From Parasphingopyxis sp. (lineage in GTDB: Bacteria > Pseudomonadota > Alphaproteobacteria > Sphingomonadales > Sphingomonadaceae): a stretch of 64,000 nt of DNA. The notes under the pieces were generated by a model, which ran no database searches, was not told where the DNA came from, and saw only the letters and a program-made list of their open reading frames with translations. Below are positions 32,158-59,052 of the stretch, piece by piece (within the stretch, counting starts at the first letter, position 1; the number at the start of each line of letters is the position of its first letter). The position numbers and the translations under genes were made by a program. The stretch covers positions 758 to 64,757 of the forward strand of contig NZ_JBQLZN010000056.1 in the NCBI RefSeq assembly GCF_052168295.1, written 5' to 3'.

Positions 32158-32571
32158 TTATTGCGGCGTAGAGACCGTCGCTTCGGGGGCGTCGCCCTCG
32201 GGCGCGTTCAGGATATCGCGCGTCGTCGAGCCATAATCGACGGCCTGGGTGTCCGGATCGCCGACCGTGCTCCGGATGCCGGCACTGGCCGATTCCGGAT
32301 CGGCCTGGTTGACGAGCGCCGCTTCGGCCGCGCTGCGCGGCGCGGGGCCGCCGAACATCGCCTGCAGCGCCTGGGTGCTCGAATCGGCGCCGCGGGCGGC
32401 CGGTTCGCCGGGGCGCGGCGGGGTCAGGTTGAAATCGGGCGGGATTACGAGCGGTGCGGAGCGCGATACGAGGAATTCGTCGGGCCGGTCCCGCCCGCCG
32501 CCGAAAATGCTGCAGGCCGAAAGGGTTGCCCCCATCACCACGAGGCTCGTCGCCACCATCACTTTACGCAT
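32158..32571 (-). CDS. DUF3035 family lipoprotein
   Basis: Lipobox LSAC and PDEF.V...APLVIPPDFNL.PP.PG. Confidence 0.85.
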   Translation of the reverse strand: MRKVMVATSLVVMGATLSACSIFGGGRDRPDEFLVSRSAPLVIPPDFNLTPPRPGEPAARGADSSTQALQAMFGGPAPRSAAEAALVNQADPESASAGIRSTVGDPDTQAVDYGSTTRDILNAPEGDAPEATVSTPQ

Positions 32572-33086
32572 TACTCTGTCTCCGCCGGTTCAGGCGTGTC
32601 GCGTAGCAGAAAAGCCCGCAACACCAAAATCACGACCCCGATGGTAATCGACGCATCGGCGACATTGAAGACCAAAAAGGGCTGGAAGTCTCCAAAATGC
32701 AGATCGATGAAATCCGCGACATAGCCGAAGCGGATGCGATCCACGATATTGCCGAGCGCCCCGCCCAGCACCATGCCGAGCGCGAATACGTCCCAGCCGC
32801 GTTTTTCGCGCCAGATCCAGATCGCGACGCCCAGCGATATCGCGGCGGTCAGCGCCACGAGCATCCAGCGCTGGCCATCGGAGGTGGCGGCCAGCATGCC
32901 GAGCGATACGCCGCGATTTTCGACCCAGGTGAAGTTGAGGATCGTCAGCAGCTCGATCTGCCCGCGCTGGGGCAACTGGAGCAGGGTGATGATCCAGTAT
33001 TTCGATATCTGATCGACGACGAAGATGGTCGCGGCGAGCAGATAGCCGAGCATCGTGCTGCGGCGTAAGCCCTTGGTTTCGCTCAT
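32571..33086 (-). CDS. lspA: Lipoprotein signal peptidase II
   Basis: DQISK, N.GVS.G, GGALGNIVDR and VFNVAD motifs. Confidence 0.96.
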   Translation of the reverse strand: MSETKGLRRSTMLGYLLAATIFVVDQISKYWIITLLQLPQRGQIELLTILNFTWVENRGVSLGMLAATSDGQRWMLVALTAAISLGVAIWIWREKRGWDVFALGMVLGGALGNIVDRIRFGYVADFIDLHFGDFQPFLVFNVADASITIGVVILVLRAFLLRDTPEPAETE

Positions 33087-33137: not shown

Positions 33138-36100
33138 CTATGCACCGATCACCTCCGCACAGCGATCGCACAGCGCCCCGTCCACCGAGACGTCAGGCAG
33201 ATGGCGCCAGCAGCGGCCGCATTTGTGATAGTCGGTCTTCTTTACCGACACTGAGATACCGCGCGGGCCATCGCTGTCTGCCGCTTTACGCGTCTCAAAA
33301 ACAGACGATTTCACTTCAGCCGTTATCGAGATTTCGGCTAAATCGACGTCTTGAATCCGACGCATCAACAATGGGTTGCCCAAATCTACTTCCAGTTCAG
33401 CTTCCAAGCTTGAACGAATTGTCTTCTCCCGGCGAAGTGGCTCGATCGCTTCGTTTATTGTGTCGCGGACAAGTCTCACATCTGACCACTTCTTCGATAG
33501 CTCATCATCGGCCCATGCCGCATCGATCTCCGGCCATTCCTCCAGATGCACCGATCCGGCGTCCGGATAGCGGGTCTGCCACACCTCTTCCGCCGTGAAG
33601 CAGAGGACCGGCGAGGCATAGCGCACCAGCGCGTGGAACAGGGTGTCGAGCACCGTGCGGTACGCCTGCCGTTTCGCTGACCCCGCTGGCAGGGATTCTC
33701 CAACATCGCAATAGAGGCAGTCCTTGCGGATATCGAAGAAGAAGGCGGACAGGTCCTCGTTCGCAAAATCGGTGAGCGCGCGGACATAGCGGTTGAAGGC
33801 GTAGTCGTTCACCGCGTCCTTCAGCGTCGCATCCAACTCGGTGAGCAGGTGGAGCACATAGCGCTCCAGCTCGGGCATATCGGCAACGGCCACACGCTCG
33901 CTCTCGTCGAAATCCGAAAGCGCGCCGAGCATGTAGCGAAAACTGTTCCGCAGCTTGCGGTACATGTCGGTGACGCCCTTGAGGATTTCCGGGCCGATCC
34001 GGTGATCCTCGGTGAAATCGACGGTCGACGCCCAAAGGCGCAGGATATCGGCGCCGTTGACGTCCATGATCTTCTGCGGATCGAGCGTGTTGCCGAGGCT
34101 CTTCGACATCTTCTTGCCGTTGGCGTCGAGCGTCATGCCATGGGTCAGCACTTCCTTGTAGGGCGCCCGCCCGCGCGTGCCGCAGCTCTCGAGCAGGCTC
34201 GACTGGAACCAGCCGCGATGCTGGTCCGAACCTTCGAGATAGAGATCGGCAGGGGATTCAAGATCCGGCCAGTTATCGCTTTCGAGCACGAAGGCATGGG
34301 TCGAGCCGCTGTCGAACCAGACATCGAGAATGTCGGTCACGACCTCATAATCCTCGAGATCGTGGCGATTGCCGAGCAGCGCCTGGTGATCGGCGGCGAA
34401 CCAGGCATCGGCCCCACCTTCGCGCACCGCCTCGACGATGCGGTTATTGACCTCGGCGTCGTTCAGATAATTGCCGGCTTTATCCACGTAGAGCGTGATC
34501 GGCACGCCCCAGGCGCGCTGGCGCGAGAGCACCCAGTCGGGCCGCCCTTCGACCATCGAGCGCAACCGCTTATGCCCGCGTTCCGGGATGAAACGGGTCT
34601 TGTCGATTTCGGACAGGGCGATTTCGCGCAGCGTCGGTCCGATGCCCTTGGCATGGCCCAAATCCTCATCCGTTAGCCCTGGTGTGCGGGCCGCCAAGCC
34701 CCCGGCTTGGCTATCGGTTGCTGGGGGCAACCGATACCCGCTCACTGTCGAAGGGCGTTCTTCGGCCGAGAGACGTGCTTCGACAGGCTCAGCACTAACG
34801 GGTGTGGCGGGATCGATGTCCAACGCCTCATCCATCCGCACAAACCATTGCGGCGTGCAGCGATAGACGACCTTGGCTTTGGAGCGCCAGCTATGCGGAT
34901 AGCTGTGCTCGAAATCGTCGGACGCCGAGAGCAGCGCCCCGGCCTCGCGCAGGTCTGCGCAGATCGGGCCTTCGGCCGAATTGAACCGCTTGTTGATGAC
35001 GCTGCCCGCCCGCTCGTCGCCGCGCGGCAGCCAGAGCCAGTCCTCGCGATAGACGCCGTCATCGTCGACCGCGAAGACCGGGTCGATGCCATGCTCCTTG
35101 CACGCGAAGAAATCCTCCTCGCCATGATCGGGCGCCATATGGACAAGGCCGGTGCCGGCCTCGGTCGTCACATGGTCGGCCGCGATAAAGGGGCGAGGGG
35201 CGGCGAAAAAACCGCCGAGATGATGCATGGGATGGCGGGCGATGGTGCCGGCGAGCTCGGAGCCTTTGAACGACGCAAGGACTTTCAAGCCAACACGCTC
35301 GCCAGCCTGAACATCGCGCTCCAATCTATCTGTAACCGATTTTCGGAGAGCTTCAGCCACCAGCAGCCGTTTGGCCTCAATCGCTACCTTGCTGTGGTGT
35401 TTCAGAACTGAGTCCAATGAAGCATCACCGCCGACCGTCGCACCGAGCTGCACCTCGACAAGAGAGTACTCAACATCCTCGCCAAACGCGATCGCCTGGT
35501 TGACCGGGATCGTCCAGGGTGTCGTCGTCCAGATGACGGCATGCGTGCCGACCAGCTCGTCGATCGGGCTTTCGATGATCTCGAACGCGACATCGATCTG
35601 CGTACTTGTGATATCGGCATATTCGACTTCGGCTTCGGCGAGCGCCGTCTTTTCGACCGGGCTCCACATCACCGGCTTCGCGCCGCGATAGAGCTGGCCG
35701 CTTTCCGCGAATTTCAGGAACTCCGCGACGATCACCGCTTCGGCGTCGAAATCCATTGTCAGATACGGCTTGTCCCATTCGCCGAGCACGCCGAGCCGCT
35801 TGAATTCCTCGCGCTGCACATTGACCCAATGGTCGGCATAATCGCGGCATTCCTTGCGGAACTCCTCGGTGGGTACGTCGTCTTTCGACCGCTTTTTCTT
35901 GCGATACTGTTCCTCGATCTTCCATTCGATCGGCAGGCCGTGGCAATCCCAGCCCGGCACATAGGGCGCGTCCTTGCCGAGCAGCGACTGGCTGCGCACG
36001 ACGAGGTCCTTGAGGATCTTGTTGAGCGAATGGCCGATATGGATAGTGCCGTTCGCATAGGGCGGCCCGTCATGCAGGATGAACTTCTCGCGGCCTTTCC

Positions 36101-36242
36101 GAGCCTTCCGAAGCTTGCCGTACAGGTCCTGCTCTTCCCAGCGCGCGAGGATGCCGGGCTCTTTCTGGGCGAGCCCCGCCTTCATCGGGAAGTCGGTCTT
36201 CGGCAGGAAAACCGTGTCTTTATAGTCGGGCTGTTCGGACAT
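33138..36242 (-). CDS. ileS: Isoleucine--tRNA ligase (bacterial type 1) carrying internal insertions
   Basis: HIGH, GWDCHGLP, WTTTPWT, KMSKS and the C-terminal CGRCW..CDRC zinc finger. 1034 aa. Confidence 0.97.
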   Translation of the reverse strand: MSEQPDYKDTVFLPKTDFPMKAGLAQKEPGILARWEEQDLYGKLRKARKGREKFILHDGPPYANGTIHIGHSLNKILKDLVVRSQSLLGKDAPYVPGWDCHGLPIEWKIEEQYRKKKRSKDDVPTEEFRKECRDYADHWVNVQREEFKRLGVLGEWDKPYLTMDFDAEAVIVAEFLKFAESGQLYRGAKPVMWSPVEKTALAEAEVEYADITSTQIDVAFEIIESPIDELVGTHAVIWTTTPWTIPVNQAIAFGEDVEYSLVEVQLGATVGGDASLDSVLKHHSKVAIEAKRLLVAEALRKSVTDRLERDVQAGERVGLKVLASFKGSELAGTIARHPMHHLGGFFAAPRPFIAADHVTTEAGTGLVHMAPDHGEEDFFACKEHGIDPVFAVDDDGVYREDWLWLPRGDERAGSVINKRFNSAEGPICADLREAGALLSASDDFEHSYPHSWRSKAKVVYRCTPQWFVRMDEALDIDPATPVSAEPVEARLSAEERPSTVSGYRLPPATDSQAGGLAARTPGLTDEDLGHAKGIGPTLREIALSEIDKTRFIPERGHKRLRSMVEGRPDWVLSRQRAWGVPITLYVDKAGNYLNDAEVNNRIVEAVREGGADAWFAADHQALLGNRHDLEDYEVVTDILDVWFDSGSTHAFVLESDNWPDLESPADLYLEGSDQHRGWFQSSLLESCGTRGRAPYKEVLTHGMTLDANGKKMSKSLGNTLDPQKIMDVNGADILRLWASTVDFTEDHRIGPEILKGVTDMYRKLRNSFRYMLGALSDFDESERVAVADMPELERYVLHLLTELDATLKDAVNDYAFNRYVRALTDFANEDLSAFFFDIRKDCLYCDVGESLPAGSAKRQAYRTVLDTLFHALVRYASPVLCFTAEEVWQTRYPDAGSVHLEEWPEIDAAWADDELSKKWSDVRLVRDTINEAIEPLRREKTIRSSLEAELEVDLGNPLLMRRIQDVDLAEISITAEVKSSVFETRKAADSDGPRGISVSVKKTDYHKCGRCWRHLPDVSVDGALCDRCAEVIGA
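34694..34802. repeat. Cluster of three palindromic elements inside ileS (two perfect hairpins plus a REP-like element)
   Basis: CCAAGCC-CCC-GGCTTGG (34694-34710). ATCGGTTGC-TGGGG-GCAACCGAT (34713-34735). REP-like arms ccgctcactgtcgaagggc ... gtgcttcgacaggctcagcactaacgg (34738-34802). Confidence 0.75.
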
Positions 36243-45780: not shown

Positions 45781-45853
45781 CCGCTCGCCCTGAGCTTGTC
45801 GAAGGGCGTTTTGCGGCGTGCGGGACGGGCGTCGATACGCTGCGCCCTGACGG
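45781..45853. repeat. REP-like palindromic element between the PBP1A gene and prfB
   Basis: Left arm CCGCTCGCCCTGAGCTTGTCGAAGGGC and degenerate right arm GGGCGTCGATACGCTGCGCCCTGACGG. Shares TGTCGAAGGGCGTT with the ileS element. Confidence 0.7.
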
Positions 45854-58318: not shown

Positions 58319-58962
58319 CGCTTGCGCCGGGCAATCAGAAACAGACTGACGCCCTTGTCCGGTTTCCAACGATGGTCGATCTTGAAGCCGCGCGTTTCGA
58401 TGTCCCGTTCCAGTTCACGGGCCTTTATCATTTCCACATGAGGGATCAGGCCCGCCAGCCGTCCGGCCGGTGCAAACAGACCAAACCATGCCATCGTGTC
58501 GGCCAGGCAGGCCGTACTGGTCACAAAAAGGCCACCAGGGGTCAGCATCCGGTGAACCTTGTCGATAATGCCGTTGCGGTCCTTCAGGAGATGCAAAACG
58601 TTCAATCCCAATATGGCGTCGAAGCTGCCGTCTGGCGCCTCAAAATCTGCGATGTCGGCTCGCGAGAAAGTGACGTTGTCAACGCCCGTGCTCCGTTGTT
58701 TCGCGCGAGCAATTTCGATCATTCGTTCAGAGATATCCGTCGCGAGTACATGGCGGACATGAGGCGCATGTTCGAGCGCGGTAGACCCTGTTCCGCAACC
58801 GAACTCCAAGATTTTCGTCTCCGGCGCAAAATTGGTCTGTGTGAGCCAGAGCTTGGTGCGATAGCTCGCTTCGTCGGCGACCGGCTTTTGCGCGTAGCGA
58901 TCGGCCACCTTGTCCCAGAATCGCGCTTCGGCAGATGGTTTCTTCATTGTCAGGTCGGTCAT
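58315..58962 (-). CDS. Class I SAM-dependent methyltransferase
   Basis: FWDKVADRYA, ILEFGCGTGS, DIS.RMIEIA and L.PGGLFV motifs. Confidence 0.88.
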   Translation of the reverse strand: MTDLTMKKPSAEARFWDKVADRYAQKPVADEASYRTKLWLTQTNFAPETKILEFGCGTGSTALEHAPHVRHVLATDISERMIEIARAKQRSTGVDNVTFSRADIADFEAPDGSFDAILGLNVLHLLKDRNGIIDKVHRMLTPGGLFVTSTACLADTMAWFGLFAPAGRLAGLIPHVEMIKARELERDIETRGFKIDHRWKPDKGVSLFLIARRKR

Positions 58963-59052
58963 TATGCTTCGTCCGCAATGTGTTCCATAATTCGCGGACC
59001 GAAATAGCTGTACGTTTTCGTCTGATAAATTGACTAAAAATGCGGGTTGTTT

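Follow-up and report, generated by a model that had tools for sequence, protein, structure and literature searches.

The ileS locus

The window considered here, meaning the whole stretch of DNA analysed, comprises 64 kb (64,000 nucleotides) from the genome of a Parasphingopyxis species (G000), a draft assembly of 3.29 Mb in 92 contigs, which are cited below by C-numbers; positions without a contig number are those of the window. It contains ileS, the gene for isoleucyl-tRNA synthetase (IleRS), and the subject of this work is an extra segment of that gene, which holds a palindromic element of 132 nt. The genes and the segment are as follows.

33138..36242, minus strand: ileS, encoding an IleRS of 1034 amino acids (open reading frame list and translation; IleRS matches in the PDB at E = 1e-211)
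34635..34820, minus strand: extra segment, D475-P536, 62 codons (site aligned as protein and as DNA in 14 relatives)
32571..33086, minus strand: lspA, encoding signal peptidase II, downstream of ileS (Pfam Peptidase_A8, E = 4e-37)

The IleRS open reading frame (ORF) is intact and contains both the HIGH and the KMSKS motif. The gene is present in a single copy in G000, giving the sole match at E = 0, and the remaining matches are paralogues of the ValRS or LeuRS type. The extra segment sits between the strand PQWFVRMD and the helix TLREIALSEID of the enzyme, where five congeners carry four residues (ESGK) in place of the 62 found in G000, so that the net gain is 58 codons. A preliminary description of this DNA, made from the letters of the window, had put about 60 extra residues between PQWFVRMD and TLRE and had placed lspA after ileS; both statements stand.

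One composite element with a nested branch

Most of the extra segment is a single composite palindrome with the inverted termini CCGTTAG and CTAACGG. Its parts are listed here from the outside inwards, followed by the two unit hairpins that make up its arms.

34670..34801: composite palindromic element, 132 nt = 44 codons (CCGTTAG...CTAACGG), defined by blastn and nhmmer searches of its own genome and by alignment of copies
34670-34681 paired with 34790-34801: left and right outer arms
34682..34744: branch of 63 nt that replaces 'AGC' (3 nt) of the simple element, a net addition of 60 nt, defined by alignments of simple with composite copies
34686-34690 paired with 34737-34741: closing stem of the branch
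34693-34700 paired with 34704-34711: hairpin 1, 8 bp
34712-34721 paired with 34727-34736: hairpin 2, 10 bp
34745-34765 paired with 34766-34786: core arms, 21 nt each
34676..34756: left unit hairpin, a GCCC...GGGC stem with the loop TG-(branch)-CACTGTCGAA, which holds the branch (RNAalifold consensus, pairs 9-13 with 88-92)
34775..34795: right unit hairpin, a GTGC stem, the conserved 13-nt loop TTCGACAGGCTCA and a GCAC stem (sequence reading; stem covariation, loop invariant)

The plain element has the form CCGTTAGCCCTGAGCCTGTCGAAGGGCG-(loop)-CGTCCTTCGACAGGCTCAGGACTAACGG, and the copies in ileS and on contig C11 have 63 nt instead of 'AGC' in its left arm. Each arm is also a short hairpin in its own right, of the form GCCC-TGAGCCTGTCGAA-GGGC, and across the composite copies the stem of 4-5 bp covaries around an invariant loop of 13 nt. 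The branch shows the same kind of compensation. Among six composite copies, both sides of hairpin 2 have changed at 6 of 11 pair positions, and compensated pairs are also present in hairpin 1 and in the closing stem. The sense-strand RNA of the insert is predicted to fold as a four-way junction with an energy of -75.7 kcal/mol (z = -4.47), a stability reached by none of 200 shuffled sequences.

Because the outer arms pair with each other, the two small hairpins are nested inside one element of 132 nt, rather than lying beside an element of 65 nt. The locus had been described as three adjacent, independent palindromes. The palindromes are indeed present, with coordinates and lengths slightly different from those first given (hairpin 1 has 8 bp and not 7, and hairpin 2 has 10 bp and not 9), but their independence is not upheld: the left outer arm had been missed, and the two hairpins form a branch within the loop of the left arm.

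A dispersed repeat family in the genome

The insert is a member of a palindromic family of about 72 nt that is found at 34 loci in G000 by nhmmer, with a hidden Markov model built from six copies. The tip motif of the arms, TGAGCYTGTCGAA, has 57 matches in the genome as against one for the reversed control, which is far beyond chance. The intergenic copies have lengths of 69, 71, 72 and 73 nt, whereas the ileS copy is exactly 132 nt. Another member lies in the window itself.

45782..45852: decayed intergenic copy with an intact left arm and a degenerate right arm (nhmmer, at C56:46539-46609, 26 bits)

The shared 14 nt at 34746-34759 and 45797-45810, from which it had originally been argued that a dispersed repeat entered the essential ileS gene and was kept in frame, as with Rickettsia palindromic elements (RPEs), are an exact identity, and the second site is this decayed copy. 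The argument itself is borne out by the 34 loci, the intact ORF and the stop-free frame considered below.

A second composite copy in G000 is intergenic (C11:58906-59038; blastn match of 130 nt, 58906-59035, 85% identity to the ileS copy), and four further composites occur in the congener G008. Since the composite is found at these other places, the apparent 'stack' of palindromes in ileS is a pre-existing subtype of the element. The earlier suggestion that the stack was built up by repeated insertion at the site therefore does not hold in that form, although a history of more than one step remains necessary, as set out below. Within the genus the 60-nt branch has no copy outside composite elements and is seen only in G000 and G008, and none was found in 200 other genomes of the order; the idea that it is an independent repeat was rejected on these grounds.

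Copies within genes were sought for four hairpin families, namely the ileS family (F1), two G/C-rich families and NTS-like hairpins. Among the roughly 100 loci of these families in G000, and with filters on GC3 (G+C content at third codon positions), ileS is the sole credible in-frame genic copy. ORFs that span copies at C5, C40, C45 and C59 were judged to be spurious, being arginine-rich, antisense-like frames, and the candidate at C54:4451 precedes what is likely to be the true start codon. For the intergenic copy at C30:4074, presence/absence polymorphism was confirmed by comparison with empty sites in relatives, in a spacer too diverged to place the boundaries.

Reading frame and predicted structure

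In canonical 72-nt copies each orientation offers just one frame free of stops (VSPEPVEGR...PSTGSGLT), as TAG, TGA or TAA interrupts the remaining two. This is the frame used by IleRS, which reads PVSAEPVEARLSAEERPSTVSG. Core (72 nt) and net addition (60 nt) are both multiples of three, and the copy is free of stops within the ORF of 1034 residues.

The AlphaFold2 model of IleRS, built with an alignment of 64 sequences, has a mean pLDDT of 88.4 and a pTM of 0.83. The only residues below 50 are 483-531, which fall between a strand (459-468) and a helix (538-548) and have confident flanks. In the solved IleRS structures 8c9e and 1ffy a turn of 2-3 residues is present at this point; their numbering passes from 415 straight to 418, and the alignment stops at query residue 470 and resumes at 538. 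The insert is predicted by the model to be a disordered surface loop, a placement already raised in the preliminary description, with the rest of the fold intact.

Tolerance of the element can be attributed to three properties: it is a multiple of three bases, it is read in its sole stop-free frame, and it occupies a permissive surface loop. Most likely, translation of the insert yields a disordered loop, about 60 residues long and harmless to the enzyme. Tryptic peptides predicted within IleRS residues 475-536 include LSAEERPSTVSGYR, LPPATDSQAGGLAAR and TPGLTDEDLGHAK.

Alternative states of the site in the genus

The genus was sampled with 18 genomes. The site is empty (MDEALESGKTLRE) in five congeners (G017, G016, G014, G004 and G007) and in the outgroup G018, from the next genus. 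The plain 72-nt element is present in G013, at the same position and in the same frame as in G000. Members of the same family are also found in ileS of G011 and G012, with a different central loop, and of G006, where the junctions differ from those of G013 and the contig breaks inside the insert. An unrelated G/C-rich palindromic element (SPLPPAGGGQGVG...PTPNPSRKREG) occupies the site in G010, G015, G002, G008 and G005. Alignment of IleRS from relatives reveals variable states at the site, absence included. With at least two repeat families at the site within the genus, and more across the order, the locus deserves the name of tolerant hotspot that it had been given.

When the insert is masked, the IleRS tree places G000 beside G010, with G013 joining next (support 96/94), so that the three closest ileS alleles are in three different states: branched in G000, simple in G013 and occupied by the unrelated element in G010. 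The IleRS tree of the genus is only partly resolved, with 4 of its 13 inner branches starred.

Several other features of ileS in the genus may be recorded here. The gene is split across contigs exactly at the insert in G006 (L033, L034) and in G008 (L031, L032; the end of its C5 and the start of its C40), and the contig ends of G008 run into long poly-G/poly-C tracts that look like assembly artefacts. A second in-frame site for a palindromic dimer lies after HPMH in G015 (L006), G012 (L007) and G005 (L010), with the reading LRHSREGGNP...DSRLRGxD; this dimer is of the NTS-like family, read in another frame. A third in-frame dimer site, near the C-terminal domain of IleRS, is seen in G002 (L005) and G012 (LRHPREGGDP...DSRLRGND). 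G000 has neither of these two dimers.

Between the element and TLRE lies a short tail, (D)LV(K/R)GH(A/G)(K/E)G(I/T)(G/P)(P/A), at window positions 34641-34669. A tail of this DLV type is also present at the same site in G010, G015, G011, G013, G012 and G008, and is thus common to carriers of two unrelated element families; G002 and G006 are without it. It may be an older insert or part of a transferred allele. The hexamer ATTTGG is found 0-6 nt after several copies of the repeat (C30:4146, C63:71532 and C7:8179) and after the ileS copies of G000 (34656-34663, sense strand), G013 and G011. The mobile unit may therefore extend a few bases past the palindrome, which would explain the start of the DL..GHAKG tail.

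The same loop across the order

A wider scan, which left out the genus itself, gave 38 named loci, 34 of them from Sphingomonadales or co-scoring metagenome-assembled genomes, in addition to Tianweitania, Devosia, Bosea and others; the best named matches were from Sphingomonadales, at 60-63% identity. In these 38 genomes of other genera, the IleRS loop is 0-50 residues longer than a baseline of about 40-45 residues, and at 17 of the 38 named loci the loop DNA folds at z <= -3.9. At least three types of peptide occupy the loop (SPSPxGEGLGxG...PNPSPEGEG, ASPEPVEGR...PSTSSG and PAKAGIS...PASAGVT).

A conserved version of the loop with 33 residues (..P.K...E..WEGEGGAIDP.[DE]E....) is present at L059, L064, L074, L115 and L128, in Altererythrobacter, Novosphingobium, Erythrobacter and others. 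It no longer forms a hairpin (z about 0), and may be the remnant of an old, fixed insertion.

A GIY-YIG nuclease cassette

Neither the left outer arm nor a link with nuclease genes had been seen in the preliminary description. The genus was searched with PF01541, and this was followed by a motif scan and by direct reading. In eight congeners (G013, G010, G002, G012, G015, G016, G008 and G011), a gene for a single-domain GIY-YIG protein of about 100 amino acids is bracketed by arms of the element, at loci L137, L139, L140, L142-L145, L154 and L159, of which L142 is that of G010 and L143 that of G013. One flank is CCGTTAGCCCTGAGCCTGTCGAAGGGCG and the opposite flank CGTCCTTCGACAAGCTCAGGACTAACGG; these correspond exactly to the arms of the 72-nt repeat, which therefore amounts to a cassette that lacks the gene.

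The bracketed nucleases all belong to one clade (M[TP]FWTYML.C..G.FY.GHTDDL.RR), and those small GIY-YIG genes that fall in the other clade have different hairpins on their flanks. The nearest solved structure to the cassette nuclease is the UPF0213 protein 1zg2 (E = 1e-15), while the NTS-flanked paralogue, to which the cassette nuclease is 35% identical, matches UPF0213 only at E = 4e-4. In Pfam the cassette nuclease matches GIY-YIG only; neither NCBIfam nor a literature search on UPF0213, YhbQ and GIY-YIG gave a match. Three small GIY-YIG genes are present in G000, none of them flanked by the ileS repeat family.

The tip motif occurs in 8 to 134 copies per genome (0-1 in the control): 8-25 where the ileS site is empty and 45-134 where the family is present in ileS, in a set of genomes that are not phylogenetically independent.

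At two loci (L138, G017 C1:1227347; L153, G001 C130:2162), a GIY-YIG ORF of the cassette clade is fused with the downstream gene in one open frame of 368-411 amino acids. In G000 the same downstream gene occurs but the nuclease is absent (C89:128834-129535, 85% identity over 234 amino acids). The fused ORF may represent a cassette inserted at the start of the gene.

Origin of the insert

The extra segment of IleRS is best explained as a copy of a selfish, hairpin-forming dispersed repeat that lies in a permissive surface loop, is kept in its stop-free frame and is likely to be translated harmlessly. We put the probability of this reading at about 85%. The repeat is a nuclease-less pair of inverted unit hairpins, similar to a MITE (miniature inverted-repeat transposable element), each unit having a variable stem of 4-5 bp and the 13-nt loop TGAGCYTGTCGAA. 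By analogy with two other pairings, that of Ssn nuclease with hairpin motif and that of RAYT transposase with REPIN, the cassette nuclease would recognise the hairpins as single-stranded DNA and spread them. At ileS, a plain 72-nt element would have arrived first, a state still seen in G013, and the 60-nt branch with its two hairpins would have been gained later, by insertion or by gene conversion from another composite copy. Since G013 has the plain element at the same site, the history of the locus still comprises at least two steps.

Several observations weigh against this reading. A close homologue of the cassette nuclease is lacking in G000, where the best tblastn match to the G013 nuclease is 35% identical; the G000 copies may be immobile orphans, or the cassette may be missing from the draft of 92 contigs. 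No target-site duplication or insertion signature can be defined at the ileS junctions, and gene conversion between copies offers a route other than transposition. The core of the element is identical at 57 of 58 positions in G000 and G013, in genes that have 84.5% nucleotide identity overall and 71% at third positions, which hints at constraint on the hairpins or at recent exchange, and not at simple neutral drift. The 132-nt unit leaves 14 extra codons outside the element (the DLxxGHAKGIGP tail and DIDPAT) unaccounted for. Finally, the translation of the insert is a step that we infer.

The insert might instead have been recruited, either as an mRNA hairpin that controls the ileS-lspA operon by making ribosomes pause, by RNase processing or through the stability of the transcript, or as a disordered peptide that gives IleRS a new interaction. 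Such a role would fit the great stability of the sense-strand fold, the near identity of the core in G000 and G013 within a gene that has diverged, and the retention by each arm of a local hairpin with its own stem sequence, but these structural features are equally kept in intergenic copies, so that the constraint belongs to the element and not to ileS. Five congeners and the outgroup do without any insert, G010, the closest relative at ileS, carries an unrelated element at the site, and the loop inserts across the order are unrelated as peptides. Recruitment of either kind is thus quite improbable. Intron-like or intein-like removal of the segment from the transcript or the protein, to give a mature enzyme without it, is scarcely credible. 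The 58 codons encode no nuclease or splicing domain and are far below the size of an intein; an Rfam search of window positions 34400-35000 matched no family, introns included, even at E <= 1; and the frame and the stop-free state are maintained, which splicing would not require. The length of exactly 132 nt in ileS, as against the varied lengths of the intergenic copies, also argues against removal.

It is also conceivable, though unlikely, that the loop is actively targeted, by site-specific insertion or by replacement through recombination between resident copies, so that its repeated occupation reflects a mechanism and not only selection for tolerated sites. That ileS should hold the sole in-frame genic copy among the hairpin loci of G000, that the same loop should be occupied in many genera and by several families, that three states should be found in the three closest relatives and that the junctions of G006 should differ from those of G013 would all be expected of such a mechanism. 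However, the junctions revealed neither a conserved target sequence nor a duplication, and the palindromic dimers at two other ileS sites in relatives fit a gene in which several loops are permissive. As all insertions that are not tolerated are lost from an essential gene, survivorship alone can concentrate events in one loop.

The reading of the segment as a tolerated selfish repeat can be extended to a more ambitious proposal, which is tentative and has the odds against it. In this proposal, the TGAGCYTGTCGAA hairpin pairs and the UPF0213-like GIY-YIG gene would make up a second, undescribed nuclease/hairpin mobile system, parallel to Ssn/SRM. Its nuclease-less derivatives, with their built-in stop-free frame, would repeatedly enter one IleRS loop, replace each other there and perhaps leave it again, making the loop a true landing pad and a continuing source of protein loop sequence.

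The allelic set at this locus (empty, simple, branched and replaced) is unusually complete, and it shows how small hairpin repeats reshape a loop in an essential enzyme between organisms that are not far apart in evolution. A link is also drawn between one of the commonest alphaproteobacterial 'hypothetical peptide' repeats (PFDKLRANG / AEPVEG...PSTSSG) and the termini of a small GIY-YIG nuclease cassette. Annotators should not take such inserts for lineage-specific domains of IleRS, and they also break short-read assemblies.

Comparison with known systems

In-frame palindromic repeats are presented as classic in Rickettsia, as RPEs (Ogata et al. 2000, as cited in PMC3733652). Di Nocera, De Gregorio and Rocco (2013; PMC3733652) described intragenic repetitive extragenic palindromes (REPs) in many species, and their Additional file 3 includes a CGTC-1 REP dimer at residues 467-488 of the IleRS of Erythrobacter litoralis (ELI_13550). 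The G000 insert resembles the RPEs and the intragenic REP dimers in being a dispersed palindromic repeat that lies in frame in an essential gene and is read as extra loop residues, and it shares with the E. litoralis dimer even the same loop, in the same order of bacteria. In contrast to RPEs and REP dimers, the G000 family has the loop TGAGCYTGTCGAA, without the GTAG or CGTC-1 signature, its ileS copy is a branched composite of 132 nt, and the site shows turnover of elements between close relatives.

Single-domain GIY-YIG proteins (Ssn, cd10448) were reported by Chenal et al. (2025; PMC11893778) to cut single-stranded DNA beside hairpin repeats that flank their genes. The hairpin-ssnA-hairpin layout was likened to an insertion sequence, and the genera rich in the Ssn-related motifs (SRM) include Sphingomonas, Rickettsia, Wolbachia and Devosia (PMC11893778). 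The likeness to the present family lies in the congeners, where a single-domain GIY-YIG gene of similar size is bracketed by a hairpin repeat that is also scattered genome-wide. The differences are that the ileS family departs from the published SRM pattern, HGTCWYN(0-2)YYVSBRHN(0-5)WNVSBRGN(0-2)RNCYNB, which matches none of 22 ileS-family loci, and that its nuclease is only distantly similar to the NTS-flanked one. By analogy, the ileS-family cassette is Ssn/SRM-like in layout and a possible member of the class. Elsewhere in G000 the SRM pattern has 52 matches, as against 12 in the control, and these include the flanks of the GIY-YIG gene on C9. Hairpins of the CGTCATTCCAGCGAAAGCTGGAATC type, in agreement with the NTS/SRM pattern, lie on either side of that small gene (C9:7206-7427), and from its sequence the C9 locus looks like a canonical Ssn/SRM system.

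REPINs and their RAYT transposases (Bertels and Rainey 2011; Nunvar 2010; Ton-Hoang 2012, as cited in PMC11893778) offer a further parallel, at least as they are presented in that source. There too, two inverted short hairpins make a longer palindrome, and the non-autonomous copies are related to sequences that flank an enzyme gene present once. A RAYT/REPIN model was rejected for G000, as no Y1/RAYT transposase gene is present (PF01797, 0 matches; positive controls worked), and the enzyme associated with the ileS family is a GIY-YIG nuclease.

Thus, the kind of event seen at ileS is already in print, both for the RPEs and for the E. litoralis REP dimer of 2013. What is modestly new is the link to a GIY-YIG cassette, the presence of just one stop-free frame, the way in which elements turn over between close relatives and the order-wide reuse of one IleRS loop. 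If the link to the nuclease is true, it would extend the Ssn/SRM idea to a second clade of nucleases and to a second type of hairpin.

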